From IMG/VR virus record IMGVR_UViG_2617270941_000006: a DNA stretch of 15,145 nucleotides; one strand, written 5' to 3'. Position numbers and translations under genes: made by a program. A model generated the notes under the pieces. The model ran no database searches, had not been told where the DNA came from, and was given only the letters and a program-made list of their open reading frames with translations. The DNA comes from a virus. Taxonomy: Duplodnaviria > Heunggongvirae > Uroviricota > Caudoviricetes. Position 1 is the stretch's first letter. Each line of letters opens with the position of its first letter. Positions 1,598 through 15,145 of this stretch are shown here, piece by piece.

Positions 1598-1631
1598 AAA
1601 AAAAGCCCCTCGACTGAGGGGCTTTCTGTTT
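1598..1631 (-). terminator. Rho-independent terminator downstream of ogr (structurally bidirectional)
   Basis: GC-rich hairpin gcccctc-gact-gaggggc flanked by a 7-A run on the plus side (7 U on the minus-strand transcript) and tttctgttt on the other side. It lies immediately 3' of the ogr stop at 1636-1638. Confidence 0.7.
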
Positions 1632-1635
1632 GTAA

Positions 1636-2043
1636 TTACATCCACATAATTTGCTGCCCTGACGGCAACGGGTGCGGCCTTACGGCGTGGACTTCTCCCG
1701 GCTTCACGATGTATCTCTGTACCGACTCATAGGTGATGAACGTGGCGCTGCAATTCACGTTCTGACACTGGTGATAACGCTCTTTTGTCGTGTCAGTGAT
1801 ATAGCGGCTTGTACGCGCATGTGCGGCATGCTGGCATACCGTGAGTGCACTGGTTTCGGGTTCATATTCAATCACCGCCCCGTCAGGGAAACGGATATGC
1901 AGGGCATCCTCCGACGCAGACGGCGCGGGGTTATCACCGGAATAAATCCCCGGCAGAACGAACGCCGTGTCGAGTTCACCGCCCACGGCCAGAATCAGCA
2001 CCTGCTCCCCCAGCCGGTCTTCAAAACGCTTAAACTCATTCAT
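1636..2043 (-). CDS. ogr: In-frame fusion ORF: N-terminal 69 aa of tail-completion protein S joined to Ogr residues 7-72 (late-gene activator lacking its first 6 residues including Cys4)
   Basis: ORF track 1636..2043 (135 aa). The C-terminal 66 aa (CQHAAHARTSRYITDTTKERYHQCQNVNCSATFITYESVQRYIVKPGEVHAVRPHPLPSGQQIMWM) match P2 Ogr from residue 7 on. The N-terminal MNEFKRFEDRL... starts 2 nt past the R stop, where gene S starts in P2. Junction at about 1836/1837. Confidence 0.7.
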   Translation of the reverse strand: MNEFKRFEDRLGEQVLILAVGGELDTAFVLPGIYSGDNPAPSASEDALHIRFPDGAVIEYEPETSALTVCQHAAHARTSRYITDTTKERYHQCQNVNCSATFITYESVQRYIVKPGEVHAVRPHPLPSGQQIMWM

Positions 2044-2503
2044 CCCACTTGCTCACCAGTTCGCCATTGATATAAAGCTCCATCGGGCGGGTGACCGGCT
2101 CCGGCGGCGGGGGTTCCGGGATATTCTTCACATGCAGCGCGCCGTCCACCTCACTGACCAGCGTGCGCTCGGTCAGCATCAGGCTGATGCTGATATCAAA
2201 GCTGCTGTCATTGTTGATGTCTGCATAAAACGTGAAGCCCTTTTTCTGGCCTGCGTCGGTGGTCATGATGTCGGGCTGATTCTCCCGCAGCCACGCCAGC
2301 ACCGGCACGATGAGCAGGTCAAAATCACCGGTAAAGTCGGTCACAATGACATTGAGCGTGTAACGCTTTTCGAATGACAGCGACGTCGCCAGTGTGGAGG
2401 CAATACTCCCGTTATCCACGAATATCCGCAGCATATCGGGGTTAGTTTTCAGTACCGTGACGGCATCAGTCAGCGCCCTGCGCAGGCTGTCGGGTTTGAG
2501 CAT
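2036..2503 (-). CDS. R: P2 gpR-like tail completion protein R (155 aa)
   Basis: ORF track 2036..2503. The protein MLKPDSLRRALTDAVTVLKTNPDMLRIFVDNGS... matches my recollection of P2 gpR, with the same length and position between lysB and S. Confidence 0.85.
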   Translation of the reverse strand: MLKPDSLRRALTDAVTVLKTNPDMLRIFVDNGSIASTLATSLSFEKRYTLNVIVTDFTGDFDLLIVPVLAWLRENQPDIMTTDAGQKKGFTFYADINNDSSFDISISLMLTERTLVSEVDGALHVKNIPEPPPPEPVTRPMELYINGELVSKWDE

Positions 2504-2756
2504 CGTTTTCGTCCTGACAGTGTTTAATCATTTTTACCTGGCTGGCACAGCGCGCCAGCGCGTTCTCAAGCTGCCGGATATCGGCACTTAAATCGCCGTT
2601 CGTCTGCGGGTCACTGCCCGGCATCGGGCAAAGGCTCACTTTCGGGCAGGCGTTGTGGACAATCACTGGCGTCGGTGCAGGCGGGGCGCTGGTGCAACCG
2701 GCGCACAGCATCAGGCAGGTCAGCGCCGTACCAGCGGCGAAAATCTTCGTTTTCAT
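2466..2756 (-). CDS. lysC: LysC-like o-spanin lipoprotein (Rz1 equivalent), embedded out of frame in lysB
   Basis: Internal Met at residue 40 of ORF 2466..2873 gives MKTKIFAAGTALTCLMLCAGCTS..., a signal peptide with lipobox (LCAGC) followed by a Pro-rich segment. It is nested in the +1 frame of the i-spanin gene, the typical Rz/Rz1 arrangement. 96 aa. Confidence 0.7.
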   Translation of the reverse strand: MKTKIFAAGTALTCLMLCAGCTSAPPAPTPVIVHNACPKVSLCPMPGSDPQTNGDLSADIRQLENALARCASQVKMIKHCQDENDAQTRQPAQGAD

Positions 2757-3036
2757 TGAGTAACCTCGTGATGGTTTTCTCGCGCTGTGCTTCACGCTTC
2801 GCGGCGTTCTCCAGTTCCTGACGCAGTGCCACCTGCGCCAGCTCGTTTTTGTCTGCCCTGGTGAGTGCAACATGAAGCTGGTTTTTCAGCATGGTGATGG
2901 TCGTCTGCTGCCCGCTGGCGACGTTGCTCGCCCTGTCCAGTGAGGTGCGCAGGCTGGCGTTTTCATGCTTCGCCAGAAACAGACCGGCCACCGCCAGTGA
3001 TAACAACACAACCAGCACAATCATCAGCTTTGACAT
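2611..3036 (-). CDS. lysB: LysB-like i-spanin (Rz equivalent), 141 aa
   Basis: ORF track 2611..3036. N-terminal transmembrane segment (MSKLMIVLVVLLSLAVAGLFLA) followed by a charged coiled-coil-like region. Length and position match P2 LysB. Confidence 0.85.
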   Translation of the reverse strand: MSKLMIVLVVLLSLAVAGLFLAKHENASLRTSLDRASNVASGQQTTITMLKNQLHVALTRADKNELAQVALRQELENAAKREAQREKTITRLLNENEDFRRWYGADLPDAVRRLHQRPACTDASDCPQRLPESEPLPDAGQ

Positions 3037-3449
3037 GGTTCCCGCACCTCAAAACGCTGACGGCAGGCCGTACGTATCAGCCGGAAGAACACCGATACCA
3101 CGAGATAAATCAGCGCGGTAAAAATCCACCCGGCAGCGACCAGCGAGATAAACGTCGCCACCATCACTACCAGAGCCACCGCCCGTCTGCGCCACGGCAC
3201 CGGCTGCAAAAACAGCGACGTGACAATCTTCACGGCCAGCGATTCCGGCGGCAGCTCCCGCCCGTAGCGTTCCAGTACATACTCTGTGGCATACACGCCG
3301 ACACCGCCGGCAACCACACAGATAACCGTCGCCAGAATCGCCCAGGCGGCGACAAAATTGACGGCCACGCTCTGCGGGTAAATCAGGGACAGTGCCAGCA
3401 TCAGCGCCAGCGACACGTTCAGCATCAGTGAAAGGGATAATTTCTTCAT
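3024..3449 (-). CDS. lysA: LysA-like membrane protein (lysis timing / holin-associated), 141 aa
   Basis: Starts at the internal ATG at residue 35 of ORF 3024..3551 (MKKLSLSLMLNVSLALMLALSLIYPQ...). The protein is highly hydrophobic with multiple transmembrane segments, and this start gives the P2 LysA length of 141 aa. The 3551 TTG start is treated as an artefactual extension. Confidence 0.75.
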   Translation of the reverse strand: MKKLSLSLMLNVSLALMLALSLIYPQSVAVNFVAAWAILATVICVVAGGVGVYATEYVLERYGRELPPESLAVKIVTSLFLQPVPWRRRAVALVVMVATFISLVAAGWIFTALIYLVVSVFFRLIRTACRQRFEVREPCQS

Positions 3450-3465
3450 GGTGTTTACTCCGTTT

Positions 3466-3561
3466 TGCGGCGAACACGGTCTCAACCACGCCCTCAGTGC
3501 GCCCGTAATACCGGACACAGATAGCGTCGAGCGTGTCGCCCTGTAGCGCAAAGGTCTTCAT
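3466..3561 (-). pseudogene. X: Truncated gpX (tail protein X) stub: first about 32 codons only, reading through out of frame into lysA
   Basis: ORF 3049..3630 contains MKTFALQGDTLDAICVRYYGRTEGVVETVFAA, matching the N-terminus of P2 gpX, starting at an ATG that overlaps the L stop (tcat at about 3558-3561). After about 32 residues the frame continues into lysA sequence in the wrong frame. The genes expected between X and lysA (Y holin, K endolysin) are absent. Confidence 0.6.
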
Positions 3562-4070
3562 CAGATTTGACTCACGATGCAGCGCGGCTTGTCCTGGATG
3601 CGCGCCACTGCCCAGCGCATATCCCGCCACAGCTCATCAATGGTGCTGTCAATGCTGTCGGCCTTCTTGTCGCCTTTCGCACTGGCATCCACGCCGCGAT
3701 AACGCTCATAAAGCGATGCGGTCGCCATCGCACACACGGCGCGCTCGTAGTAAAAAACTTTGATGCTTTCACCGTCGATGTCGTCCGCCGGGACGTCCGC
3801 CAGACGCGTAAAACCGGCAGCAATTTTCTGTTTGCGGTACTCGTACAGCTCCGCATTCGTCTCCGCCATGCCTGACTTGATGGCCTCACGCAGACGGGCG
3901 GGGGCGACGGTCTGCTCAAGGCGCATACGTTCCCGGACGCGCTTCGGGTCGATATCGGGAAAAAAGAACGTGTTTTTAATCACCGGCTCGTCGCCTGCCG
4001 GTTGCGGGATGACCACCGTACCCTCACCGGACACGGGAGCCTCCTTTCGCGGAATAATCAGCGTCATCAT
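3561..4070 (-). CDS. L: P2 gpL-like head completion/stabilisation protein (169 aa)
   Basis: Starts at Met 21 of ORF 3561..4130 (MMTLIIPRKEAPVSGEGTVVIPQPAGDEPVIKNTFFFPDIDPKRV...), which matches P2 gpL. There is a GAGG Shine-Dalgarno about 5 nt upstream and the length is 169 aa. Confidence 0.85.
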   Translation of the reverse strand: MMTLIIPRKEAPVSGEGTVVIPQPAGDEPVIKNTFFFPDIDPKRVRERMRLEQTVAPARLREAIKSGMAETNAELYEYRKQKIAAGFTRLADVPADDIDGESIKVFYYERAVCAMATASLYERYRGVDASAKGDKKADSIDSTIDELWRDMRWAVARIQDKPRCIVSQI

Positions 4071-4169
4071 GACTACCTCTGAAAAGTCGGGCGGTGGACG
4101 CCGGTACAGCGTCAGGTGATTCACCCTCACTGACCGGCGTGCCGCCCTGGCGCGGGGCGCATTCGGTTG

Positions 4170-4913
4170 TTAACTGGCTTTCTTTTTCGGGCGTCCACGT
4201 TTTGCCGGTGTCACGCTCCGGCTCTTACGCGGGGTACGGGTGGCCGCTTTGGGCTGCGGCTCCGGCTTCGGTTTCAGCTCCCGCTCCAGTCGTTCAATCT
4301 CTTTTTTGACACCTGCCTGACAGTCGAGCTGTGTCGCACGTTGCAGGTGAGCCAGCGCACCGGCGGCATCACCACCATCACGCAGAAACAGACCTGTGAT
4401 TTTGTGCAGCTTTGCGCGCACTTCATCAGGCATGTCAGCCGTGGCGGTCAGTTCAAGGGTCTCCGTCAGCAGGCGGGTATCCACAGACTCACCGGCAGCG
4501 TGAGCACGCATGGCCGCGAGCGCCACCTCCTCGGTGAACATGTACGGCGGGGTGCGGCGGTGTTTACCCGGCATGGTCAGACCGTACTTCAGGGCATAAC
4601 GGGCAATCTCCAGCGCACCGGCAATATCGCCGGTATCCAGACGCCACAGCATGACCGTCATCAGAATGTCATCCTGTGCACCTTTGCCCTGCTCCAGCAC
4701 GCCGTTCACCCACGGCAACCAGAACGGCAGCAGTTCGCGTTTTTTCGCGGCCTTCAGCTCTTTTGAATAAATCGCTTTCAGTGTGCGCTGGTCTGCGGCG
4801 AGCTTAACCAGCATCTGCTCATAGACAGTTGCATGTCGCAGCGGGGCGGCTTCCCGCTGCGCGGTCATCGCTGCCGAGACCCGCATCATGTGGCGCTGTG
4901 CGGGACTCGTCAT
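4170..4913 (-). CDS. M: P2 gpM-like terminase small (endonuclease) subunit, 247 aa
   Basis: ORF track 4170..4913. The sequence MTSPAQRHMMRVSAAMTAQREAAPLRHATVYEQMLVKLAADQRTLKAIYS... matches recalled P2 gpM, with a basic Lys/Arg/Pro-rich C-terminal tail. Length 247 aa as in P2. Confidence 0.9.
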   Translation of the reverse strand: MTSPAQRHMMRVSAAMTAQREAAPLRHATVYEQMLVKLAADQRTLKAIYSKELKAAKKRELLPFWLPWVNGVLEQGKGAQDDILMTVMLWRLDTGDIAGALEIARYALKYGLTMPGKHRRTPPYMFTEEVALAAMRAHAAGESVDTRLLTETLELTATADMPDEVRAKLHKITGLFLRDGGDAAGALAHLQRATQLDCQAGVKKEIERLERELKPKPEPQPKAATRTPRKSRSVTPAKRGRPKKKAS

Positions 4914-4916
4914 CGG

Positions 4917-5990
4917 TTACGCTCCCGGCTCTGCGGTCGCTTTAGCCAGTGTGGAGAAATCACCGACCTTAATTTTTTCCACCAGACAACCGGCGGCGTA
5001 GTCTTCCACCACGTAATCAATGTTCATTGACTCGTAGTTCTCCACGCGGTCGAGTTTCGGGTTTTCCTCAATCACGCGGCGATGGCTGTCATCCATGTAG
5101 TAGATGGACAGGTTTTCCAGCTTCGTGATGAGCATCGCATCCGCCGGGAAGTACGGGACGCGTACCGCTGGCAGGTTACCGATGCGTTTCTGGCTGATGA
5201 TGACGTCAGCGGCCAGCATTTCGCTGTTGTCCTGCTCCTTGTTAACGATGGGGAAATACTTGTCCGCCAGTAACTGACGTCCCACTATCACCACAAGGTC
5301 AGGGTCTTCCTGATACCACGGTTCGATCAGGTTGTTGGTCGCATCCATCACCAGTGCATCAAGGCTGGCATAATCACCGCCCTTACCCACACGGATGACC
5401 TCAGAGGTCGTGTGACCTTCCTCGTCAGTGACCTTGCTCATCACGCGCGCCGGTGCTTCATTGCGGTATTTCTGCAGCCAGCCGACCGCCACATCCTGCA
5501 ACATCGGATTACTGTTGCGGTCAGAGGTTTCGGCACGCTTCACGCCGTTAAAACCGGCCATGATGAAATCAAGGGACTGGCGTTTGATAATGGCGTTACG
5601 GATACGGAGCTGGAAATCCTGATAACGCGCCCACAGGTCAAGCGTTTTGTAGCGGATATAAAAATCGAAGTTAACCTGGTCGCATTCGTACTTGTTTGAC
5701 GCCAGCTTCGAGAAGTCCTTCGGCTGACGCTCGGTGCCACCGGCGGTGTCGGTGGTGCTGGCGATGGAGCCGGTGACACCGATACCAATTTTTTCCCCTT
5801 TCATTTCGCTGACCGGCACAATGTTGATGCGGGTCAGAAAGTCAGAGGACTCCTGCATGGTGTTCATCAGGGTCTGGGTGACCGACGGTTCAACGGTGAA
5901 TTTTTTCGACACATCACCGGCGTCGATGCCGTTCAGTTCGGCAACACGGGACAGGTAGGCATTAAATTTAAAGCGGGTTTCCTGGCGCAT
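4917..5990 (-). CDS. N: P2 gpN-like major capsid protein, 357 aa
   Basis: ORF track 4917..5990. MRQETRFKFNAYLSRVAELNGIDAGDVSKKFTVEPSVTQTLMNTMQESSDFLTRINIV... matches recalled P2 gpN. Length 357 aa as in P2, positioned between O and M. Confidence 0.9.
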   Translation of the reverse strand: MRQETRFKFNAYLSRVAELNGIDAGDVSKKFTVEPSVTQTLMNTMQESSDFLTRINIVPVSEMKGEKIGIGVTGSIASTTDTAGGTERQPKDFSKLASNKYECDQVNFDFYIRYKTLDLWARYQDFQLRIRNAIIKRQSLDFIMAGFNGVKRAETSDRNSNPMLQDVAVGWLQKYRNEAPARVMSKVTDEEGHTTSEVIRVGKGGDYASLDALVMDATNNLIEPWYQEDPDLVVIVGRQLLADKYFPIVNKEQDNSEMLAADVIISQKRIGNLPAVRVPYFPADAMLITKLENLSIYYMDDSHRRVIEENPKLDRVENYESMNIDYVVEDYAAGCLVEKIKVGDFSTLAKATAEPGA

Positions 5991-6048
5991 AGTTTTTCCT
6001 GAAATTAAGGGTTAATCGTGAAGGTTTTCCCGGACTGGCTGACGCCGG

Positions 6049-6903
6049 TCAGCAGTTCGTCATCAGGGCGTCACCGCCACCGCCGGTGGCCTTGCTGCGG
6101 CGCTGCTGGGTCAGACTTTCGGTGTGGTCGAGACTGTTTTTCAGGCGGGTGAATGCCTGGCTGGTTTCATCCGCCCTGTCTGTCACCTCCTGCTTAAGTG
6201 CGGAAAAGGCGGTTTCCATCTCAGCGAGGCGCTGCTCAGTGGCGCTCAGTTTTTCCTGCACATGTTCAGCAACAGCGGTCACCGCTTCATGCACGTCATT
6301 CAGACGGGCGTCATCGCTGGCCTGTTTGCGGCCAAAAATGGATTTCACCTTTTCGGTCAGGGCGGTGAACACGGTTTCAGGCAGGTCTTCAAATTCCAGC
6401 TCAACAGGCGTTGCCACTGAAATCAGGTTTTCAGGGCTTAATTTGAAGCGGTTCAGGGGGTTGTGTTTTGCCGTGCGGCAGAATTCCAGGTATTCCGTGC
6501 CGAGGCTTGCCGGGTCATCGGTGACGGCCAGACCCACCAGATAACATTTGCCGGTATTGGCAAAGTTCGGCTGAATTTCCATTGAGGTATAGACCTTCTG
6601 CGCGGCCTTGTTCATCGCGATAAGGTCATCGGTCGGGGTGATTTTCGCAAACAGCGCCCATTTGCCTTTCAGCGCCGAATCATCGTCAATCTTTTCGGCC
6701 TTCAGTTCGGCCACATCGCCATAACGCTTAAAAATACCGTCAGGCAGGATGCCGCGCAGATGTTCCAGGTTAATGCGGCAACCATAGACTCGCGGGTCAA
6801 AGGTTTCGGCCATTTCCTGAATATCCTGCGCACTGATGACACGCCCGTCACAGGTGTCACCCTCAACGCCGATACGAAAGAATTTTGAGACTTTTTTTGC
6901 CAT
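6049..6903 (-). CDS. O: P2 gpO-like capsid scaffolding protein, 284 aa
   Basis: Starts at Met 23 of ORF 6049..6969 (MAKKVSKFFRIGVEGDTCDGRVISAQDIQEMAETFDPRVYGCRINLEHLRG...), giving the P2 gpO length of 284 aa. The cat at 6901-6903 is the ATG on the minus strand. Confidence 0.9.
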   Translation of the reverse strand: MAKKVSKFFRIGVEGDTCDGRVISAQDIQEMAETFDPRVYGCRINLEHLRGILPDGIFKRYGDVAELKAEKIDDDSALKGKWALFAKITPTDDLIAMNKAAQKVYTSMEIQPNFANTGKCYLVGLAVTDDPASLGTEYLEFCRTAKHNPLNRFKLSPENLISVATPVELEFEDLPETVFTALTEKVKSIFGRKQASDDARLNDVHEAVTAVAEHVQEKLSATEQRLAEMETAFSALKQEVTDRADETSQAFTRLKNSLDHTESLTQQRRSKATGGGGDALMTNC

Positions 6904-7076
6904 TGTCAGGAGTCCTGAATAGTGATTAGAGGAGTCACATGTCGGCATCAGTTTCCCGACGATGCGCATCCTCCGCCATCAGTCCCGGATGGCTTATCAC
7001 TGACACAACAGCACCTTAGCGAATCGCGGGGCGCGACTCAGTAGCCTTGCCGTGTATTCATCACGGCGAGGTATTC
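6904..7076. promoter_or_regulatory. Divergent late-promoter region between O (leftward) and P (rightward), expected site of Ogr-dependent promoters
   Basis: A 173-nt intergenic region between divergent late operons, as in P2 where PO and PP are activated by Ogr. GAGG Shine-Dalgarno at about 7065-7068 before the P start. I could not find a perfect TGT-N12-ACA element, so exact promoter positions are not assigned. Confidence 0.4.
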
Positions 7077-8849
7077 ATGACCATCACCACAGACACCACT
7101 CTTTTACACGACCCGCGTCGTCAGGCGGCGCTGCTGTACTGGCAGGGATTTTCCGTGCCGCAGATTGCCGCCATGTTGCAGATGAAACGCCCGACGGTGC
7201 AGAGCTGGAAACAGCGCGACGGCTGGGACAGCGTTGCCCCCATCAGCCGTGTCGAAATGAGTCTGGAAGCGAGGCTGACCCAGCTCATCATCAAACCGCA
7301 GAAAACCGGCGGTGACTTCAAGGAAATTGACCTGCTCGGACGCCAGATTGAACGACTGGCACGGGTCAACCGTTACAGTCAGACCGGCAACGAGGCAGAC
7401 CTTAATCCGAACGTCGCTAACCGCAACAAGGGCGGGCGTCGCAAACCGAAAAAGAATTTTTTCAGTGACGAGGCCATCGAAAAGCTGGAGCAGATTTTCT
7501 TTGAGCAGTCTTTCGAATATCAGTTGCACTGGTATCGCGCCGGGCTTGAGCACCGCATCCGCGATATCCTGAAATCCCGCCAGATTGGCGCGACGTTTTA
7601 TTTTTCCCGCGAGGCGCTGCTGCGCGCCCTGAAAACCGGTCATAACCAGATTTTTCTGTCGGCCAGTAAAACGCAGGCGTATGTGTTCCGCGAATACATC
7701 ATCGCCTTTGCCCGGTTGGTTGACGTTGACCTGACCGGTGACCCAATTGTCCTGGGCAATAACGGCGCAAAACTGATTTTTCTCGGCACCAACTCCAACA
7801 CCGCGCAGAGCCATAACGGCGACCTGTACGTCGACGAGATTTTCTGGATCCCGAATTTTCAGGTGCTCCGTAAGGTGGCATCAGGTATGGCCTCACAGAG
7901 CCACCTGCGCTCGACCTATTTCTCCACCCCGTCCACGCTGGCGCACGACGCCTACCCGTTCTGGTCGGGTGAACTGTTCAACCGGGGACGCGCCAGCGCC
8001 GCCGAACGCGTGGAAATCGACGTCAGTCATAACGCCCTTGCCGGAGGTCTTCTCTGTGCGGACGGCCAGTGGCGGCAGATTGTCACCATTGAGGACGCCC
8101 TGAAAGGCGGCTGCACGCTGTTCGACATTGAGCAGCTCAAACGCGAAAACAGCGCCGACGATTTTAAAAACCTGTTCATGTGTGAATTTGTTGACGACAA
8201 GGCATCGGTGTTCCCGTTCGAGGAGCTGCAACGCTGCATGGTCGACACGCTGGAAGAATGGGAAGACTATGCGCCGTTTGCCGCCAATCCGTTCGGCTCC
8301 CGCCCGGTATGGATTGGTTACGACCCGTCACACCGTGGCGACAGCGCCGGATGCGTGGTGCTGGCACCGCCGGTGGTGGCCGGTGGAAAATTCAGAATAC
8401 TTGAGCGTCACCAGTGGAAAGGCATGGACTTTGCCACTCAGGCTGAATCCATCCGCAAACTCACCGAAAAATACAACGTCGAATACATCGGTATTGATGC
8501 CACCGGCCTCGGTGTCGGCGTGTTCCAGCTCGTGCGCTCGTTCTATCCCGCCGCGCGCGATATCCGCTACACACCGGAAATGAAAACTGCAATGGTGCTC
8601 AAGGCAAAAGACGTTATCCGCCGTGGCTGTCTGGAATATGACGTCAGCGCCACCGACATCACCAGCTCGTTCATGGCTATCCGCAAGACCATGACCAGCA
8701 GCGGACGCAGCGCCACGTATGAGGCCAGCCGCAGCGAGGAAGCCAGCCACGCCGACCTCGCCTGGGCGACCATGCATGCCCTGTTAAATGAGCCACTCAC
8801 CGCCGGTATCAGCACCCCGCTGACATCCACCATTCTGGAGTTTTACTGA
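7077..8849 (+). CDS. P: P2 gpP-like terminase large (ATPase) subunit, 590 aa
   Basis: Starts at Met 11 of ORF 7047..8849 (MTITTDTTLLHDPRRQAALLYWQGFSVPQIAAMLQMKRPTVQSWKQRDGWDS...), which matches recalled P2 gpP. The TTG at 7047 is treated as an extension. The stop overlaps the Q start (tgatga). Confidence 0.9.
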   Translation: MTITTDTTLLHDPRRQAALLYWQGFSVPQIAAMLQMKRPTVQSWKQRDGWDSVAPISRVEMSLEARLTQLIIKPQKTGGDFKEIDLLGRQIERLARVNRYSQTGNEADLNPNVANRNKGGRRKPKKNFFSDEAIEKLEQIFFEQSFEYQLHWYRAGLEHRIRDILKSRQIGATFYFSREALLRALKTGHNQIFLSASKTQAYVFREYIIAFARLVDVDLTGDPIVLGNNGAKLIFLGTNSNTAQSHNGDLYVDEIFWIPNFQVLRKVASGMASQSHLRSTYFSTPSTLAHDAYPFWSGELFNRGRASAAERVEIDVSHNALAGGLLCADGQWRQIVTIEDALKGGCTLFDIEQLKRENSADDFKNLFMCEFVDDKASVFPFEELQRCMVDTLEEWEDYAPFAANPFGSRPVWIGYDPSHRGDSAGCVVLAPPVVAGGKFRILERHQWKGMDFATQAESIRKLTEKYNVEYIGIDATGLGVGVFQLVRSFYPAARDIRYTPEMKTAMVLKAKDVIRRGCLEYDVSATDITSSFMAIRKTMTSSGRSATYEASRSEEASHADLAWATMHALLNEPLTAGISTPLTSTILEFY

Positions 8850-9467
8850 TGAGCAAGAAAAAAGGGAAAACACCGCAACCTGCGGCAAAAACAATCACCG
8901 CCAGCGCCCCGAAAATGGAGGCATTCACCTTTGGTGAGCCGGTGCCGGTACGGCCTGCCGGAATATCTCAGCGCCCTTAATTCTGCCTGGCTGAATGAGT
9001 CGGCCACGCTGTTCCGCCGCAAGTATTACGAAAACGGCGCTCATGCCGGATATATCATGTACGTCACCGATGCCGTGCAGGATCGCAACGATATCGAAAT
9101 GCTTCGCGAAAACATGGTCAAGTCGAAAGGCCGCAACAACTTTAAAAATCTGTTTCTCTATGCCCCGCAGGGGAAAGCCGACGGCATTAAAATTATCCCG
9201 CTCAGTGAAGTGGCAACGAAGGACGATTTTTTTAATATCAAAAAAGCCAGCGCCGCTGACCTGCTGGACGCACACCGCATCCCCTTTCAGTTGATGGGCG
9301 GCAAGCCGGAGAACGTCGGGTCACTGGGAGATATTGAGAAAGTGGCAAAGGTCTTTGTCCGCAATGAGCTTATCCCGTTACAGGACAGGATCCGCGAGAT
9401 AAACGGCTGGCTCGGTCAGGAGGTCATCCGCTTTAAAAACTACTCACTGGACACTGACAACGGCTGA
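8849..9467 (+). pseudogene. Q: Portal gene Q disrupted by an internal out-of-frame deletion (N-terminal 34 codons, then C-terminal about 172 codons in another frame)
   Basis: ATG at 8849-8851 overlapping the P stop gives MSKKKGKTPQPAAKTITASAPKMEAFTFGEPVPV, then RPAGISQRP and a stop at 8978-8980. The portal C-terminal sequence (YGLPEYLSALNSAWLNESATLFRRKYYENGAHAGYIMYV...DTDNG) is in ORF 8931..9467 in a different frame. The total span is about 206 codons against 344 aa for P2 Q. Junction near 8948-8951. Confidence 0.8.
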
Positions 9468-9472
9468 ACATC

Positions 9473-9494
9473 GCCGCCTGCGGGCGGCTTTTTT
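9473..9494 (+). terminator. Rho-independent terminator after Q
   Basis: Hairpin gccgcc-tgcg-ggcggc followed by tttttt, beginning 6 nt after the Q stop. Confidence 0.65.
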
Positions 9495-9636
9495 ACACCC
9501 CGTCATCACGCCCTCACACGCTCACCACCGCACAAAACACCCCGCAGACACACCAATGCCCCGGCTAACAATCTAAACGCCATCACGACGCGCTCAGACG
9601 CTGAAAAAATAAAATCAGCACCACCGCCAGCGCGCA

Positions 9637-9655
9637 GTGCTTTCCCCGCCTCGCC
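9637..9655. other. P2-type cos site (19-nt cohesive end sequence)
   Basis: gtgctttccccgcctcgcc is the reverse complement of the P2 cohesive end GGCGAGGCGGGGAAAGCAC as I recall it. It lies about 170 nt beyond the end of Q, as expected for the P2 genome end. Sequence from memory, not verified. Confidence 0.6.
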
Positions 9656-9772
9656 CGCCCGCTTAATGGGGCGGTTTTAATGCGGGTGCATAACCACTTC
9701 TTACCCACATCAATTCTGGTCAAGCCAAGCAGTACAGCTTATGATTTCAAGATGCAAACTCATGCAGCAATG

Positions 9773-10966
9773 TTAAATTCTGCATCCATCGGTTTGAAAA
9801 TGTGATCCGTTTTTCGAATTCAAACTCAACTCTGTTTGACTCTTTTGAACATTAATAGTTTTACCAGTAAGGACATCCAAAACCCCTGCAGCAACAGCCT
9901 GCGCCAATTTACAAGGCACAGCATTCCCTATCTGACGCCAAATTGACGAATTTTTCCCCACAAAGACATAATTACTCGGGAATGTTTGAATCAAAAGAGC
10001 CTCATCTATCGTTAGTCGACGTAAACGACTAGGTACATCGTGCATATCTTTTGGCTCACCACCATTCATTAGATGATTATGATAAGTCTCAACATAACTT
10101 GTTGAGCCATCATAAAGGTGTTCTTCATCAATAATTGGTGTCCTATTCCCTCCCATAGAAGCAGCTATAGTTGAAGCATACCCATTCGGGTTAATTGGTC
10201 TTCCCTGCCCGTTAAACATCATTCCCGCGTAAGGTGACTTCCGTAATACTGGCTTAGCAGCATTTGTAATCCTTGCATTACAGACTCTTGAATTGTTTGG
10301 ATTACCCGCTCGCCCTAAAGGCCGAATAATCTCACCAACTGTGGGCGAAAGATATTGGTATTTTTTTATCGCCGCCTCAACTCGTTTCACATCATTTTCG
10401 GAACGAAACCCTATAAAAAACATACGTTCCCTATTCTGAGGAACGCCAAAATCTTTAGAATTCAGCACCAGCAAGGCTGAACGATAGCCTGACTTTTCAG
10501 CCATCTTAAACAGTTCACACCTAACTGGTTCAAATTTGGACAACTGTGCTAAAGCCTTAACATTCTCCATAACAAAGCATTCTGGTTGAATTATATCCAC
10601 CGCCCGCATGAATGACATAACCAGCTTACTACGTGGATCATGAGCGTCCATTTTCCCTGCCACAGAAAATCCTTGGCATGGAGGCCCACCAAAAACACAA
10701 CCTATATTTTTCAGCCCAGACAATTCACTTAGCATCTCATCAATATCACCACAAAAAACAGGTGATTCATGATTAAGCTTAAATGTATCACATGCATCCT
10801 TATCTATATCATTGGCCCAAACTGTTCGGAACCCGGCATTAGAGAAACCGACATCCATCCCTCCTGCCCCAGTAAATAAGCTCACCGCTGAAATTTTGTT
10901 CACTTCTTTAGCACCAATTATTCGATTTTGGAATAAAACCAATGATAGGTAAGGATCGACACACAA
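9773..10966 (-). CDS. DNA (cytosine-5)-methyltransferase, Type II R-M modification subunit (397 aa with the TTG start)
   Basis: ORF track 9773..10966. Conserved m5C-MTase motifs in canonical order: LFTGAGGMDVGF (motif I, AdoMet binding), GGPPCQGFS (motif IV, catalytic Cys), ENV (motif VI), QNRERMFFIG (motif VIII), a variable target-recognition region, and RQIGNAVP (motif X). The TTG start has an AAGGTGA Shine-Dalgarno 4 nt upstream; GTG starts 21 or 27 codons in are alternatives. The region is AT-rich compared with the phage backbone. Confidence 0.85.
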   Translation of the reverse strand: MCVDPYLSLVLFQNRIIGAKEVNKISAVSLFTGAGGMDVGFSNAGFRTVWANDIDKDACDTFKLNHESPVFCGDIDEMLSELSGLKNIGCVFGGPPCQGFSVAGKMDAHDPRSKLVMSFMRAVDIIQPECFVMENVKALAQLSKFEPVRCELFKMAEKSGYRSALLVLNSKDFGVPQNRERMFFIGFRSENDVKRVEAAIKKYQYLSPTVGEIIRPLGRAGNPNNSRVCNARITNAAKPVLRKSPYAGMMFNGQGRPINPNGYASTIAASMGGNRTPIIDEEHLYDGSTSYVETYHNHLMNGGEPKDMHDVPSRLRRLTIDEALLIQTFPSNYVFVGKNSSIWRQIGNAVPCKLAQAVAAGVLDVLTGKTINVQKSQTELSLNSKNGSHFQTDGCRI

Positions 10967-10986
10967 TCAATCACCTTCTAAACCAC

Positions 10987-11256
10987 ATGGCAAAACGACA
11001 ACCAACTATACATGATCATAGATACAGGTGCCTAGTCCAGCTTCTCACCAAACTACGCAAAGAAGCTTCTCTTTCGCAGTCAGAATTGGCCATTTTTCTA
11101 GGATTATCACAATCAGATATATCTAAAATCGAAAGCTTTGAAAGGCGATTAGATGCTTTAGAACTATTTGAATTATTAGAGGTGGTTGCAAGCCGATTAG
11201 GTCTACCAATGGATATCTTACTAAAGGACACCTATGAAAGTATTAGTAAATCATGA
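10987..11256 (+). CDS. XRE-family helix-turn-helix regulator, putative R-M controller (C) protein, 89 aa (104 aa if it starts at the ATG at 10942)
   Basis: Internal Met 16 of ORF 10942..11256. HTH segment LRKEASLSQSELAIFLGLSQSDISKIESFERRLDALELFELLEVVASRLGLPMD follows the pattern of R-M controller proteins. It is divergent from the methyltransferase and its 3' end overlaps the start of the downstream ORF by 23 nt (C-R operon architecture). Start codon choice is uncertain. Confidence 0.65.
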   Translation: MAKRQPTIHDHRYRCLVQLLTKLRKEASLSQSELAIFLGLSQSDISKIESFERRLDALELFELLEVVASRLGLPMDILLKDTYESISKS

Positions 11257-12289
11257 GCAAGCCTATAATGTAATTATAAATGCAATCAACGATGCAAAAA
11301 AATTAACTGATTACAAAACAAATAATCAATGGGTCTCCATTCAAAATGTAATTTTAGGCACCCACCTTACATACAGATATATACTTATTACTGGTTTACT
11401 TGCAAAAGCAACAGACCCTAGAGTAAACCCTCTTGCTTTACAAGCTAATGCCCCCGTAGACGGAGCCTATGATGCAAGAAGTTTATGTCATTCGGTAATA
11501 GTAGGCAAAGTAGAAGGCCCATTTTTAGAGGGTAAGTTAGGCGCATCAAATGAGCCATTTCTAAATAAACCTGCTCGTTACATGCTCCACTCCTCTGATA
11601 ACCCTGTGCGCAGAGGAAATGATAAGGTTTTACAACAACTTTCAATTGATATATTACATGCAGCAACAACCCAAACCTTAGCTTATGAAATGCTTGTTAT
11701 TGCATTATATTTTACCCTACAGCGAACCAATAGAGTTATAACGCCGAACTCAATTAATTTTGATTTCCATAAGATTATTTATAATATTATATCTCATCCT
11801 TGTGATGGAGAAACATGCGCGATTGCTGCCGCAATTTCGTTACATTTATTAGGTGAACAAAGAGGATGGATAATAAAAGCACATCCCGTCAATCAGGCCG
11901 GTAGCTCCTCAAAAGAGATACTGGACATAGATGTATATCATGACGATATAGTTTTCCTTTCTATAGAAGTGAAAGACAAACCATTTAATTATCAAGATGT
12001 TAATCACGCCGTTTCAAAAGCATCTGCATCCGGGATTTCAAAAGTTATCTTCCTTAAAGGGCCAAGAGCAACAAACTTAGATATTGATGAGTCTCTTGCG
12101 ATTGAGAACGCTGCGACAAAAGGTGTTTCACTAAGCTTTAGTGACGTCATGACATTCACAACAACATGTTATGCGTTATCGCCACTATTAAGTAATGACA
12201 GAATAATAGATTTCATAAATAACACTTTAAAAGACATCAGAGCTAAAGATAGCACTATAGAATACATACAATCCATATTTAAAAATTAA
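11234..12289 (+). CDS. Putative Type II restriction endonuclease (351 aa), family unassigned
   Basis: ORF track 11234..12289. ATG preceded by AAAGGA Shine-Dalgarno at 11223-11228, translationally coupled to the HTH gene. Candidate PD-(D/E)xK-like motif around residues 231-247 (LDIDVYHDDIVFLSIEVK, about nt 11924-11974). Function is inferred from genomic context with the m5C-MTase and controller; the ORF itself is solid, the product call is tentative. Confidence 0.55.
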   Translation: MKVLVNHEQAYNVIINAINDAKKLTDYKTNNQWVSIQNVILGTHLTYRYILITGLLAKATDPRVNPLALQANAPVDGAYDARSLCHSVIVGKVEGPFLEGKLGASNEPFLNKPARYMLHSSDNPVRRGNDKVLQQLSIDILHAATTQTLAYEMLVIALYFTLQRTNRVITPNSINFDFHKIIYNIISHPCDGETCAIAAAISLHLLGEQRGWIIKAHPVNQAGSSSKEILDIDVYHDDIVFLSIEVKDKPFNYQDVNHAVSKASASGISKVIFLKGPRATNLDIDESLAIENAATKGVSLSFSDVMTFTTTCYALSPLLSNDRIIDFINNTLKDIRAKDSTIEYIQSIFKN

Positions 12290-12296
12290 TACTCCC

Positions 12297-12331
12297 GGGA
12301 CAATATAGTTCACAACTACGTTGTCCCTTTT
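12297..12331 (+). terminator. Putative rho-independent terminator after the endonuclease gene, in the convergent gap with gene A
   Basis: Inverted repeat gggacaa ... ttgtccc (17-nt loop) followed by tttt, 8 nt after the stop at 12287-12289. The stem is short and the loop long, so this is a weak call. Confidence 0.35.
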
Positions 12332-12382
12332 AAAACAGTCAAGCAATTGCATTATATTAATTATTTACTTTTTATCACAATC

Positions 12383-14653
12383 TCATAATTCATACGCTCT
12401 CCAATCACATATAACAGGATAACTGAAGCTTCTCCCGTCGTAATTTACAGTTGCCCCACGCGCCAGCGCCTCAAGCTCCCATCGCTGCGGCCTGATACCG
12501 TTCTGAGCAAGGTCAACGCGGATACGGGTGATTTGCAATCGTTCAGACCTGGTCAGTCTGGCCGATGGTGCTATTTCATGCGGTTTTAACGGGCTTCCGT
12601 TTCTTTGCTGACGGTTTGGTGTTATCAGGTCGTGTTTTAATGCGCCCCTGAGCGCCCTCACGACCTCCGGGTCATTCCATTCGATAACACCGTCATCAAC
12701 CAGATTAAGCACTGCTGCGGCGTGTTCAGAAGGTGTGGGAGCCGGTAACGAAGTATCACCACTGGTGAGCTTTCCACAGTTATTGACAGGACTCCGAGGC
12801 GCGGCGATGCCGCTTTTTAAAGTCAAAGGCTCAACGACCGGAACTTTCGGCACAATGCGCCAGTCCGTCGTTCTGGTGATATGAATATGACGCGCGCCGA
12901 GATGCGGCGCGTAAATGCCGACCACTCTCTCGACTTCTTCCTCGTACTCGTTAACGTCATCCGACGGGCTACGGGCGACCCTGACAGTCTGACAATCGCG
13001 CGGGACATTTGCCCCGCCCTGCGCGCTGATATACAACGCAAAATCACCACTGTCTGCGGCGGCGCGTGCAGCCTCGACGCGTTCGTCAAACTCATCAGCA
13101 ATGCTGACGCCGCGAGGCAATTTGCGTAGCTCACGGTAAGCCCCCATTGTCGGCAGGCCAACCGTTTTAAATTGCGGAATGCGCCACGTTGACGCCCATG
13201 CGGTAACAGCCGCGGCAGTATCTTTCAGCGGCCTGCCAGTATCGTTATCGAGCTGACCATCCAGTGCATAGCCGTCGATGTTTTTTGAAATGTATTTCGC
13301 GATATATCCCGCAGCACCGCCCCGGTTAAGGTGTTTTGCCTGAAAACGGTTTCGCGCAGCTCCTCTTTCGTCTCCATCCTCTTTGAGCGCGTAGCGACGC
13401 ATGATTTCGATAATCTGGTTACGCTGGCGTGGATTACAAAAAAGCATCATATGCCAGTGCGGCGTTCCGTCGTGGTGTGGCTCGACGACACGCAAACCGT
13501 AGACCTGTAAATCATTATCCTTGAATGCCGTGCGCATCAGGCTCCAGATATGGCAGAGATAACGCTGCGCATCCTTTGGATTAAATGCCTCATCATTCCA
13601 GCCGTGATTTAGCTGGACGGTTTTACTTTCGCCTTTTCCGACCTGACGTGTCGGGTGATACTTTGACGGCGCGGTCAGCGTGATAAACATCCCCACATCA
13701 CCCTCTGCGGCGGCATAACGCTCAATTCCGGCGATGGTGTTCATCAGCTCCATCCGGCGAATTTCAGGATTAGAAATACTGCCCATCACCTTACTGATAA
13801 GGTCGATGCGCTCGCCGGTTTCCCTGTTTTCAAGGTCACACGATTTAAGAAATTCCAGATTTGCCTGGCGGCGTGCACGCACATCACGAATGGCATGTTT
13901 ACTGGCATAAGGAGAACGGTCTTTATTGACCTCCCCGACAGCAATCAGTAACGCCTCATGCCAGCGCATACGCTGGCCTTTAAGCTGATGAGTCCACCAC
14001 TCATCGTTAAACAGACGGGCAATGGCAGAATATGCCTGCCTCGTAGTTATCTGTCCTTTACGGTATTTTTTCCAGTAGAGCGGGGAAATATTGAAAGCAC
14101 GTGCAGCGCCAGCAACATGACCATACAGGTGAGTCTGCGCCTCATCCGTAAACAGCGATTCTTTTTCGCCATGTGCATCAACCCATGCATCGCAGAGTTC
14201 CTCATACATCATGAAAAGCTGCGATGAGATACGGGCGGCAAACTTTTTCAGCTCCTTGTCATTCATCCCCGGCAGGCGCGCATAGTGGTCACGCTCTGCC
14301 AGAAACAGTAACGACTCGTCGGTGTTCATTTCATGGCGCTGATTCACGCGCTCAATGCGCGGCCATAAACGACGCTGAAAAGTGGATGTGAGGAAATAAA
14401 ACCCGTGCACCGGGCTTTTATTGCGCCGGATGTAGTCATAGCGTGAAGTAAACAGCGAGCGCAAAAAGTAAGGCAGGCGGTTAATCGTGGATAAAACACC
14501 TTGCACCTGACGCATCTCGTCACGTGTAAGGGGTCTTTCGCGCCCGACAGCCTCGCGTGGCGCGTTCCATGCATAAGCACCGGTAAACGCCTTACCGGTG
14601 CCTGCGGCAAATGCTGACGGAGGGACAAAACGCCCGGAGGCTTTAACGGCCAT
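12383..14653 (-). CDS. A: P2 gpA-like rolling-circle replication initiator (HUH endonuclease), 756 aa
   Basis: Starts at Met 15 of ORF 12383..14695 (MAVKASGRFVPPSAFAAGTGK...), the P2 gpA N-terminus as I recall it. HUH metal-binding motif (GTPHWHMMLF) and active-site tyrosine motif (GYIAKYISKN). The upstream gene stops at 14643, consistent with this start. The extreme C-terminus is AT-rich and may be chimeric. Confidence 0.9.
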   Translation of the reverse strand: MAVKASGRFVPPSAFAAGTGKAFTGAYAWNAPREAVGRERPLTRDEMRQVQGVLSTINRLPYFLRSLFTSRYDYIRRNKSPVHGFYFLTSTFQRRLWPRIERVNQRHEMNTDESLLFLAERDHYARLPGMNDKELKKFAARISSQLFMMYEELCDAWVDAHGEKESLFTDEAQTHLYGHVAGAARAFNISPLYWKKYRKGQITTRQAYSAIARLFNDEWWTHQLKGQRMRWHEALLIAVGEVNKDRSPYASKHAIRDVRARRQANLEFLKSCDLENRETGERIDLISKVMGSISNPEIRRMELMNTIAGIERYAAAEGDVGMFITLTAPSKYHPTRQVGKGESKTVQLNHGWNDEAFNPKDAQRYLCHIWSLMRTAFKDNDLQVYGLRVVEPHHDGTPHWHMMLFCNPRQRNQIIEIMRRYALKEDGDERGAARNRFQAKHLNRGGAAGYIAKYISKNIDGYALDGQLDNDTGRPLKDTAAAVTAWASTWRIPQFKTVGLPTMGAYRELRKLPRGVSIADEFDERVEAARAAADSGDFALYISAQGGANVPRDCQTVRVARSPSDDVNEYEEEVERVVGIYAPHLGARHIHITRTTDWRIVPKVPVVEPLTLKSGIAAPRSPVNNCGKLTSGDTSLPAPTPSEHAAAVLNLVDDGVIEWNDPEVVRALRGALKHDLITPNRQQRNGSPLKPHEIAPSARLTRSERLQITRIRVDLAQNGIRPQRWELEALARGATVNYDGRSFSYPVICDWRAYEL

Positions 14654-14918
14654 ATGAGCCAAAAGCCTCTGAACAACGCTTGCTGAGTTGCTCAACCTGC
14701 GCGTTTAAATCAGCAAAAGACTTTGCGCTTCCGGTCAGAATATCGTGATGCATCAGGCCGGAAACGAGCTGGCTTAATTTCGGGTAATAACCAACCACCG
14801 CCAGCCATTCCTGACCGGCGTTTTTACCGCTTTCCGCTCTCTTTTTCTCGTGGAGAATAAACTGAAAGCTGTCACTGGTAACGACATAACGTTCGCCAAT
14901 TTCGATACGAATACTCAT
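14643..14918 (-). CDS. P2 early-operon small protein immediately upstream of A (orf83-position homologue), 91 aa, function unknown
   Basis: ORF track 14643..14918. The ATG overlaps the stop of the upstream zinc-finger ORF (tcat at 14915-14918). It sits where the P2 early operon has small ORFs between B and A. The name is by position only. Confidence 0.55.
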   Translation of the reverse strand: MSIRIEIGERYVVTSDSFQFILHEKKRAESGKNAGQEWLAVVGYYPKLSQLVSGLMHHDILTGSAKSFADLNAQVEQLSKRCSEAFGSYGR

Positions 14919-15139
14919 GCCATTCTCCGGTAATGTTTGTTTTTTGCTTCAAAGACTGACTGACAGGAAACACAACGCGTGGCTGACGGATAAGCCGCAC
15001 GACGGGCAGCAGGTATTGGCGCGTCACACTCTTCGCAAACCAGCGCAGAAGCACCGCAATGTTTTACCCTTGCCGCGTTAATCTGGCGCTCCAGTAATTC
15101 AGCCTGTTGTTCCTGAATAAAATCTACGTTGTCCGGCAT
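14915..15139 (-). CDS. TraR/DksA-family C4 zinc-finger protein (P2 early-operon small ORF, orf82-like), 74 aa
   Basis: ORF track 14915..15139 with ATG at 15137-15139. Four cysteines in two CxxC pairs (HCGASALVCEECDAPIPAARRAAYPSATRCVSCQ), typical of phage TraR/DksA-like zinc fingers. Confidence 0.65.
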   Translation of the reverse strand: MPDNVDFIQEQQAELLERQINAARVKHCGASALVCEECDAPIPAARRAAYPSATRCVSCQSVFEAKNKHYRRMA

Positions 15140-15145
15140 TACCAG

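Follow-up and report, generated by a model that had tools for sequence, protein, structure and literature searches.

The window, by which we mean the whole 15,145-nt stretch of DNA analysed here, contains the control region of an EcoT38I-type Type II restriction-modification (R-M) system. This system is already published, and EcoT38I itself, its controller gene, and a crystal structure of the controller are all on the public record. Taken as a whole, the best explanation, to which we assign a probability of about 0.8, is an EcoT38I-type control region carried as P2 cargo, in which the methylase (M) is read from GTG 10903 and the controller (C) from ATG 10987, with a main operator (OL) overlaid by divergent promoters. 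The gene identities, the conservation of the start codons and of the operator, and the recurrence of the promoter geometry across loci were observed directly. The comparative set comprised 16 related loci, with 8 close loci used for invariance of the operator box, 7 related loci for the M start, and 9 distant C homologues. From this comparison comes a map of operator and promoters that can be put to the test, for a branch of C proteins that has received little study and whose partners, in several bacterial phyla, are m5C methylases and SacI-family endonucleases.

The M gene (minus strand, 9773–10903, counted from the conserved GTG) encodes an m5C DNA methyltransferase of the M.EcoT38I type (PF00145, 1.4e-66). 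The C gene (plus strand, 10987–11256) encodes an Xre-type HTH protein of 89 residues and of the C.EcoT38I type (HTH_3, 1.8e-06), and the downstream gene (R; plus strand, 11234–12289) encodes a SacI-family restriction endonuclease of the R.EcoT38I type (RE_SacI, 1.9e-76), residues 4–277 of which align to positions 4–276 of the profile. The identities of the methyltransferase and HTH protein named in an earlier note on this DNA hold. A small HTH protein ahead of R in the same orientation is also present in the 8 close loci and in several distant ones, and the architecture of a divergent m5C methylase, C, and an overlapping SacI-family endonuclease is conserved as far as Thalassospira, Legionellales, and Bryobacteraceae. 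The earlier note had recognized in it the layout of a C-protein circuit, with the HTH gene ahead of and overlapping R and divergent from M; that reading holds, and was already established for EcoT38I.

The window copy resembles EcoT38I in both protein sequence and placement. Residues 6–89 of C are identical at 84 of 84 positions to the chain in PDB 2EF8 (E = 1.1e-48); the molecule name in that entry is only “putative transcription factor,” and from the entry title we take it to be the C.EcoT38I structure. When read from V22 of the ORF that opens with TTG 10966, M matches UniProt Q83VT0 (363 aa) at 362 of 363 residues, the sole difference being V versus M at the initiator, and Q83VT0_9CAUD is filed under Peduovirus P2. 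The window copy differs from EcoT38I in a stop-to-Lys change at 9812–9814 (T9814 here, A in the RefSeq locus L001), which adds 13 residues to the C-terminus of M, and in a 413-bp deletion in the portal gene.

The cassette is inserted between the P2 portal gene Q and the replication gene A (Phage_GPA, 2.1e-124), and the RefSeq gene order in L001 is the same as that in the window: portal, M, HTH/C, SacI-family endonuclease, replication endonuclease. The carrier is a defective P2 prophage of E. coli, with the R-M system as its cargo between Q and A. A megablast search of the R-M cassette against a phage collection returned no match. The EcoT38I work of Kita, Kawakami and Tanaka (J Bacteriol, 2003), as its title is said to imply, places that system between P2 Q and A. 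It reportedly describes M and R as head to head with 330 nt between them and C as lying between M and R and overlapping R, and C.EcoT38I is said there to activate R and repress M. The gap from GTG 10903 to ATG 11234 is exactly 330 nt, matching that reported M–R intergenic length. GRGCYC, presumably the EcoT38I site, occurs once in the 15,145 nt, against 14.0 +/- 3.6 expected; the endonuclease family is that of SacI (GAGCTC). Rare codons listed for EcoT38I, namely AUA at codon 15 of the endonuclease and GGG at codons 12 and 15 of the methylase (PMC6456624), agree in position with R read from 11234 and M read from 10903. This fingerprint is only a partial match, because the table omits a GGA codon 14 and a GGG codon 24 that are present in the window (PMC6456624). 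C.EcoT38I is also listed, under a REBASE-derived name, among C proteins with a predicted upstream site (PMC2632904).

The methylase most likely starts at GTG 10903, 63 bases farther from C than the TTG proposed in the earlier note. The sequence features on which that proposal rested are present: the minus-strand ORF 9773–10966 opens with TTG at 10966–10964 directly after an in-frame TGA, and AAGGTGA at 10977–10971, 4 nt upstream of the TTG, forms an anti-SD duplex of −9.6 kcal/mol. As the start in use, however, the TTG is not confirmed. A stop interrupts the M frame 0–5 codons upstream of the ATG or GTG aligned to GTG 10903 (V22 of the TTG ORF) in 7 of 7 related loci, and because these stops close the frame, the extension is missing in all relatives. 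Gene calls in related loci give M proteins of 361–366 aa, and Q83VT0 begins at the position equivalent to GTG 10903. Read from the TTG, the protein enters the Pfam methylase domain at residue 26, whereas in relatives only 3–6 residues precede that domain. The ribosome-binding site of GTG 10903 is a GGTG 8 nt upstream (minus strand, 10912–10915), within a (T)AGGTG conserved at equal spacing in relatives, with anti-SD duplex energies of −5.2 kcal/mol in the window and −3 to −11.9 kcal/mol among them. The TTG thus has the stronger Shine-Dalgarno sequence of the two, and PGAP picks it as the M start in L001. The lineage-specific open-frame extension of 21 codons (minus strand, 10904–10966) is probably 5′ untranslated or promoter DNA, and RefSeq methylase entries of 384 and 397 aa probably carry a false 21-residue N-terminal extension. 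Given its strong Shine-Dalgarno sequence, the TTG may be used occasionally from an upstream transcript.

On the plus strand, the HTH ORF ends at 11256 and offers two in-frame ATGs, 10942 and 10987, both of which the earlier note had left as candidate starts. C homologues are conserved from MAKR, at ATG 10987, onward, while upstream of this point the indels are not multiples of three. We rejected ATG 10942, as its 15 extra residues are unconserved and interrupted by non-triplet indels in relatives, and the codon falls inside the −10 of the predicted main M promoter. From the GTG 10903 and ATG 10987 starts, the distance between M and C is therefore 83 nt (10904–10986) and not about 20 nt; the shorter spacing previously proposed rests on a TTG that is peculiar to this E. 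coli lineage. Upstream of C, the anti-SD energy is +1.8 kcal/mol, and a usable Shine-Dalgarno sequence is missing in relatives too.

At the other end of C, the 23-nt overlap with R that the earlier note described is read directly at 11234–11256, and the corresponding overlap is 11 to 56 nt in relatives. The R ATG lies within the conserved C codons TAT GAA AGT in 8 of 8 loci. Its ribosome-binding site is an AAGGA inside the C coding sequence, 5 nt before ATG 11234 (plus strand, 11224–11228; −5.3 kcal/mol); 5 of the 8 loci have AAGGA there. No hairpin is predicted over the R ribosome site at the C–R junction (z = +1.13), and we accordingly discarded an RNA structure occluding it. A consensus scan of 10700–11400 returned neither a promoter-like site on the plus strand nor a terminator-like one; their absence within this interval is compatible with cotranscription of C and R. 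In PvuII, the one C system in which this was tested directly, overlapping C and R are translated independently (PMC2997769). Translational coupling of C and R, as proposed earlier, is not supported; because R has its own AAGGA site, no hairpin covers it, and the PvuII precedent is negative, the gene overlap does not establish coupling.

Although the earlier note could not assign an operator, comparison of loci indicates that one can be assigned. The 15-mer ATTCGATTTTGGAAT at 10920–10934 is a candidate C-box and the putative main operator, OL: it is invariant at 15 of 15 positions in 8 close loci whose flanks are about 70% identical, and it sits in a conserved extended palindrome, TATTC-N7-GAATA (10919–10935). 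Its half-sites ATTC and GAAT are 11 bp, or one helical turn, apart. Variants fitting AT(T/G)C(G/C)A(A/T)NTT(G/C)G(A/C)AT occur upstream of 9 of 9 distant C homologues, and in L003 and L005 a second box follows in tandem exactly 15 bp downstream of the first. Symmetric changes at box positions 3 and 13 (T/A versus G/C) go together with an S-to-P change in the C recognition helix: for every one of the five SQP proteins, at least one half-site is of the GC type, and four of five SQS groups have ATTC/GAAT on both sides. The box is visible only by comparison with other loci, and an inverted-repeat search within the window missed it, the seed being longer than the arms of the box.

The zero-mismatch match to the C-box is unique in the window. 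A box-like match at 9805–9819 with 2 mismatches was set aside as chance level, since at least 2 matches turned up in 49 of 200 shuffles. The weak palindromes pointed out previously, TTGG-N7-CCAA and a CGAT/ATCG pair, are present in the window but are not conserved in relatives, and no other conserved palindrome was found between M and C. Neither known alternative box type was detected, with no PvuII-type GACT-N3-AGTC in 10900–11000 at up to 1 mismatch and no EcoO109I-type CTAAG-N5-CTTAG upstream of C at up to 2 mismatches. A weak second operator, OR, adjoining OL at 10935–10950 is speculative; only its left half-site, AAACCAA, is box-like, the match is poor by reading, and we could not substantiate it in the window.

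Two divergent promoters are predicted over OL. The C–R promoter, PCR (plus strand, 10928–10956), would pair a −35 TTGGAA at 10928–10933, within OL, with a weak −10 AAGGAT at 10951–10956 across a 17-nt spacer and would start near 10963. Thirteen of 16 loci share this geometry, with the −35 at box+8 and a −10 of the form nAnnAT at box+31 to +37; within the −10, positions A2, A5, and T6 do not vary in alignment A2. The C start codon is at box+44 to +46 in the seven distant loci with a short gap; five of these loci (L004, L005, L007, L032, and L033) carry the PCR geometry, so their predicted PCR start (box+44) coincides with the C start codon. These predicted starts agree with the leaderless C mRNAs that have been described (PMC2632904). 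In the window, the predicted C mRNA has a leader of about 24 nt without a Shine-Dalgarno sequence, and by the predicted starts this lineage may have swapped an ancestral leaderless C mRNA for one with such a leader.

The predicted main M promoter, PM (minus strand, 10942–10970), has a −35 TTGATT at 10970–10965, a 17-nt spacer, and a −10 TATCAT at 10947–10942, with a start near 10935, at the edge of OL. It has the best minus-strand PWM score in the window (11.8), was picked up by the consensus scan as well, and reappears at an identical offset in L002, L024, L026, L027, and L004 and within 1–2 nt in L008 and L009. A weaker second minus-strand candidate (TTACCT at 10952–10947, 16 nt, CAAAAT at 10930–10925) is the dominant form in distant loci. 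The centre of OL is near −36 of the predicted PCR start and overlaps the −35 hexamer, which is unusual for an activator, and C bound at OL could in principle repress PCR. Since OL includes both a −35, TTGGAA, and an opposite-strand −10, CAAAAT, promoter function may account for some of its conservation. The predicted divergent promoters over OL would fit C repressing M and activating C–R.

Based on this map, the following order of events is proposed. Upon entry into a new cell, the strong PM would fire, and because its polymerase would occlude the weak PCR, the methylase would be made first. C would build up slowly from an mRNA with the short leader and no Shine-Dalgarno sequence, until a C dimer could bind OL at the ATTC and GAAT half-sites. 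Binding there would block PM at +1 to +16 and aid polymerase at PCR, resulting in positive feedback and in delayed endonuclease synthesis from a bicistronic C–R message, on which R would initiate at its own AAGGA site. The transcription start sites, the binding of C to OL, and the order of these events are what we infer.

Other interpretations of the region were weighed against this one. M could instead start at TTG 10966, 20 nt from C, with the promoters inside each other's genes and R coupled to C through the overlap. The Shine-Dalgarno sequence of the TTG is in the top 4% (about 4% of random 20-mers from the window reach −9.6 kcal/mol or better), RefSeq annotates this start, a promoter-like element inside C with a predicted start near 10998 (discussed below) could supply a TTG-carrying transcript, and the C–R overlap is conserved. 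Nevertheless, the extension occurs in no relative, the frame there being closed by stops; deposited Q83VT0 begins at V22; the Pfam domain starts only at residue 26, against 3–6 preceding residues in relatives; and the TTG overlaps the −35, TTGATT, of the best predicted M promoter. As regards coupling, R has its own Shine-Dalgarno sequence without an occluding hairpin, and in PvuII an overlap of similar size leaves translation of C and of R independent (PMC2997769). We consider this arrangement unlikely.

It is less likely again that the 15-mer is conserved solely as promoter elements, that is, as the −35 of PCR and the −10 or start of PM, with C binding elsewhere or acting indirectly. The TTGG(A/C)A in the box does score as the −35 of a recurrent plus-strand promoter, and in L003, L004, L005, L032, and L033 the CAAAAT of the box forms the −10 of a strong minus-strand promoter whose −35 is TTGACA. 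Yet the outer dyad AT(T/G)C...G(A/C)AT extends beyond both hexamers and is still conserved, the symmetric changes from T3/A13 to G3/C13 follow the S-to-P change in the recognition helix, and L003 and L005 carry tandem copies 15 bp apart. Moreover, between M and C there is neither another conserved palindrome nor a C-box of the PvuII or EcoO109I type. Finally, the HTH protein could have nothing to do with the R-M genes, being instead a repressor of the phage or antitoxin type placed there by coincidence, as weak NCBIfam matches to antitoxin and phage repressor HTH families and the marginal similarity to C.BclI and C.AhdI (E = 0.015 and 0.046) might suggest. The order M–C–R with C overlapping R in every close locus and in most distant ones, in unrelated genomic contexts beyond P2 prophages, and the REBASE-derived literature name C.EcoT38I (PMC2632904) leave this with very little credibility.

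The control region in the window can be compared with those of other C systems. EcoRV shares the divergent M and C–R units with a palindromic C operator between them; there C activates C–R and inhibits M, and the operator is a single palindrome type rather than the PvuII double box (PMC2632904, PMC2175313). The EcoRV operator sequence and C protein branch differ from those of the window, and the EcoRV C mRNA is reported to be leaderless (PMC4824078), in contrast to the predicted leader of about 24 nt here. PvuII has an autogenous activator-repressor that is cotranscribed with R, a C-dependent −35 that overlaps the promoter-proximal half of the strong operator, as predicted for the window, and two operators 15 bp apart centre to centre, as in L003 and L005 (PMC2175313, PMC2997769). 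Its C–R overlap of about 20 nt resembles the 23 nt of the window and was shown to act without translational coupling (PMC2997769). However, GACT-N3-AGTC boxes are absent from the control region of the window, and PvuII-group C proteins have marginal sequence similarity to its C. C.EcoO109I and C.Csp231I share a palindromic operator with arms of 4–5 bp and are atypical C proteins with extra helices (PMC4824078), but their operator, CTAAG-N5-CTTAG, is absent from the control region here. The R gene of Csp231I is served by promoters of its own, 152 nt away from C (PMC4824078), whereas in the window C and R overlap.

One side observation, possibly new, concerns a conserved reverse promoter-like element inside C (minus strand, 11005–11034). 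It consists of a −35 TAGGCA at 11034–11029, an 18-nt spacer, and a −10 TATAGT at 11010–11005, with a predicted start near 10998, and contains the palindrome TATACATGATCATAGATA at 11007–11024. Both hexamers are the same in all enteric loci. Nine of the 10 codons in the element are nucleotide-invariant, compared with 6 of 36 amino-acid-invariant codons elsewhere in C, and the invariant codons include the rare ATA, AGG, and CTA. Invariance of these 30 nt across enteric homologues, beyond protein need, might reflect a functional reverse promoter giving either a second M transcript that traverses the C-box or an antisense RNA to the 5′ end of C, although we regard this as doubtful.

If it is true, transcriptional interference or antisense control would be added to the EcoT38I timing circuit, and a longer methylase isoform from TTG 10966 could arise in E. 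coli. A functional element would constitute a second control layer of a kind reported for only a few R-M systems, of which the intragenic reverse promoters of EcoRI are an example. The earlier expectation that each promoter lies inside the neighbouring gene or in a tiny shared region may be correct in part: the shared region of 20 nt does not stand, while the reverse element in C may represent a promoter inside the neighbouring gene.

The window is a P2-like prophage: replication protein gpA is encoded at 12383-14695 (Phage_GPA, 2.1e-124), and a fragment of the portal gene lies at 8931-9467. GC content falls to 36–47%, versus about 55%, in an insert at about 9500-12400, which encodes an m5C methyltransferase on the minus strand (M; PF00145, 1.4e-66) and, on the plus strand, an Xre-type HTH protein (C) and a SacI-family endonuclease (R; PF09566, 1.9e-76). 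Compared to the intact prophage of E. coli NCTC10973 (L001), 413 bp of portal gene Q are missing at about 8948-8951; because only a 178-aa C-terminal ORF of this gene is left, the P2 prophage of the window is defective.

Twenty complete E. coli genomes carry the restriction-modification cassette at 99% identity or more, and their RefSeq gene order is portal, methylase, HTH, SacI-family REase, and replication endonuclease. Over residues 6–89, the HTH protein matches PDB 2EF8 with 100% identity (an entry named as an E. coli “putative transcription factor”; PMC6060171), and the methylase from V22 onward is identical to UniProt Q83VT0, filed under Peduovirus P2, at 362 of 363 residues. Both agree with the EcoT38I system described by Kita, Kawakami and Tanaka (2003), in a paper whose title (cited in PMC2853133) places that system on a P2 prophage. 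The EcoT38I site, GRGCYC, occurs once in the window (1-15145), at 1294-1299, versus 14.0 +/- 3.6 expected from shuffles, which indicates that the prophage strongly avoids the site of its resident enzyme; this scarcity is also consistent with EcoT38I identity. Exactly 330 nt lie between GTG 10903 and ATG 11234, again consistent with EcoT38I, in which Kita and coworkers reportedly found M and R head to head and 330 nt apart, with a C gene between them that overlaps R and is said to activate R and repress M. The rare codons that PMC6456624 lists for EcoT38I (AUA at REase codon 15, GGG at MTase codons 12 and 15) are in the positions expected if R begins at 11234 and M at 10903; two further rare glycine codons of the window are absent from that list. 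C.EcoT38I also appears in the list by Sorokin et al. (PMC2632904) of REBASE C proteins for which a binding site was predicted upstream. The C-protein circuit read from this DNA in the earlier note is therefore right but already known, having been published as EcoT38I.

All features cited in that note were found where it had placed them: TTG 10966, its proposed M start, is the first codon of the methylase ORF and immediately follows an in-frame TGA, with AAGGTGA 4 nt upstream; in-frame ATGs of the HTH gene occur at 10942 and 10987; and the HTH and endonuclease genes overlap by 23 nt (11234-11256). We compared 16 related loci, seven of them close (from an Enterobacteriaceae MAG, Citrobacter, Enterobacter ludwigii, Yersinia aldovae, and three metagenomic contigs) and nine distant. 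C homologues are conserved only from MAKR/MTRR, equivalent to ATG 10987; the 15 extra residues that ATG 10942 would add lack conservation, and their DNA differs among the loci by indels of 5 to 14 nt, so we place the C start at 10987. The M frame of every close relative is closed by a stop 0–5 codons upstream of an ATG/GTG aligned to GTG 10903, and thus the TTG 10966 extension exists only in the E. coli sequence. A (T)AGGTG is conserved 8 nt upstream of the aligned start in the close relatives, whose M gene calls are 361–366 aa. Judged by this conservation, the M start is 10903, which is also the deposited start. PGAP annotates TTG 10966 regardless; that codon is further disfavored because the −35 of the best minus-strand promoter overlaps it, but it could be in occasional use, given its strong Shine-Dalgarno (−9.6 kcal/mol, which ranks in roughly the top 4% among random 20-mers, versus −5.2 for GTG 10903). 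The 20-nt M-C spacing proposed earlier is accordingly unsupported, as the conserved starts at 10903 and 10987 give an 83-nt spacer (10904-10986). At its other end, the methylase stop TAA of the reference variant is AAA at 9812-9814 (minus strand; T9814 versus A in L001), so that M gains 13 residues before the next stop, at 9773; both stop variants are common in E. coli, as 397-aa and 384-aa forms counted from the PGAP start.

Alignment of the spacer reveals a single block invariant in all eight sequences, ATTCGATTTTGGAAT at 10920-10934, with flanks that are about 70% identical and contain indels. This candidate C operator (OL, or box) lies in an extended palindrome, TATTC-N7-GAATA, and the 11-bp spacing of its half-sites, one helical turn, is suitable for an HTH dimer; the palindromes suggested in the earlier note, which assigned no operator, are not conserved. 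Variants fitting AT(T/G)C(G/C)A(A/T)NTT(G/C)G(A/C)AT occur just upstream of all nine distant C homologues, and L003 and L005 have a second copy exactly 15 bp after the first. Within the window, OL alone fits the degenerate consensus without a mismatch. A further candidate at 9805-9819 has two mismatches and is within chance, and neither PvuII-type nor EcoO109I-type boxes are present in the window's control region. Box positions 3 and 13 vary symmetrically, from T/A to G/C, and the GC form goes with an S-to-P change in the recognition helix (SQSDISKIE versus SQPDISKIE): in this small sample, 5/5 SQP proteins have at least one GC half-site, and 4/5 SQS groups have ATTC/GAAT on both sides. An explanation of OL as a promoter element only would not predict this pattern, small as the sample is.

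Promoters were predicted with a position-weight scan anchored on the box in the 16 loci (box+n denotes the offset in box-anchored numbering). A plus-strand promoter common to 13 of these has a −35 TTGG(A/C)A at box+8, a spacer of 17–18 nt, and a weak −10 nAnnAT at box+31 to +37, with a predicted start at box+43 or +44. A gap of 29–31 nt separates the end of the box from the C start codon in seven distant loci (L004, L005, L006, L007, L009, L032, L033), placing this codon at box+44 to +46. Of these short-gap loci, five (L004, L005, L007, L032, L033) have the recurrent promoter, and its predicted start coincides with the C start codon, which would give the leaderless arrangement known for C genes (PMC2632904, PMC4824078). 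The enteric group (the window and L002–L031) has 52–66 nt of variable, indel-rich sequence inserted between box and C start. The corresponding C-R promoter of the window (PCR) would start near 10963, leaving a leader of about 24 nt without a Shine-Dalgarno (+1.8 kcal/mol). A Dam site (GATC) at 10954-10957 overlaps the predicted PCR −10 (AAGGAT followed by C); among the relatives it occurs in the Yersinia locus only. The best minus-strand site, the predicted methylase promoter PM, has a −35 TTGATT at 10970-10965, a 17-nt spacer, and a −10 TATCAT at 10947-10942, with a predicted start near 10935; it recurs at the identical offset in L002, L024, L026, L027, and L004, and within 1–2 nt in L008 and L009. 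A second minus-strand arrangement, with its −35 at box+33 and a −10 CAAAAT within the box, is dominant in the distant loci and weak in the window. Under either arrangement, the predicted divergent promoters overlap, and OL would sit on the start site or the −10 of the M promoter.

From this layout, to which EcoRV is closest among known systems, we infer a mechanism that follows standard C-protein logic. Soon after entry, a strong PM would be active and a weak PCR would be both poor and occluded. C would build up slowly from an mRNA without a Shine-Dalgarno, and a C dimer on OL would then block PM and favor polymerase at PCR, giving positive feedback and delayed R synthesis from the C-R message. 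At high C, a weaker adjacent site may fill and limit PCR, as in other C systems (PMC2175313); such an operator is not convincing in the window. The weak point of the mechanism is that OL is centered near −36 of the predicted PCR, overlapping the −35 hexamer, but the −35 of the C-dependent promoter of PvuII likewise overlaps the proximal half of its strong operator (PMC2175313).

The R ATG lies within the conserved C codons TAT GAA AGT in 8/8 close loci. Overlap length varies from 11 to 56 nt among the relatives, and C-R overlaps of about 20 nt are common in C systems, according to Kaw and Blumenthal (PMC2997769). Translational coupling of C and R, as the earlier note proposed, is unsupported and does not appear to be favored in the window, because an AAGGA of its own precedes the R ATG by 5 nt (−5.3 kcal/mol), no RNA structure is predicted at the C-R junction (z = +1.13), and R of PvuII is translated independently of C (PMC2997769).

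Within C, codons 7–16 (11005-11034) are nucleotide-invariant, in nine of the ten cases, across seven enteric loci, including the rare or highly degenerate codons ACT, ATA, AGG, and CTA; in the rest of the gene, this is true of only 6 of 36 amino-acid-invariant codons. The stretch coincides with a minus-strand promoter-like site (TAGGCA, 18 nt, TATAGT) and holds an 18-bp palindrome, TATACATGATCATAGATA, centered on GATC. A second promoter for the methylase, or an antisense promoter within C, is a possible role for it. If it functions in this way, the earlier expectation of a promoter inside the neighboring gene would be partly right.

Some distant loci depart from this gene content. L009 (4016-6855) encodes a C homologue of 262 aa, composed of the HTH domain and an uncharacterized extension, with a CoA-transferase gene after it in place of an endonuclease gene; L009 still has the box and the divergent m5C methylase. 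Three others, L006 (4258-5337), L008 (1027-2112), and L004 (4318-5082), retain the box and C gene, and the ORF downstream of C lacks a Pfam match in all three, which raises the possibility that the C module is combined with more than one family of endonucleases. L006 and L008 have an opposite-strand start codon just upstream of the box, and the L008 gene that begins there reads as an m5C methylase N-terminus (MKAISLFSGAGG).
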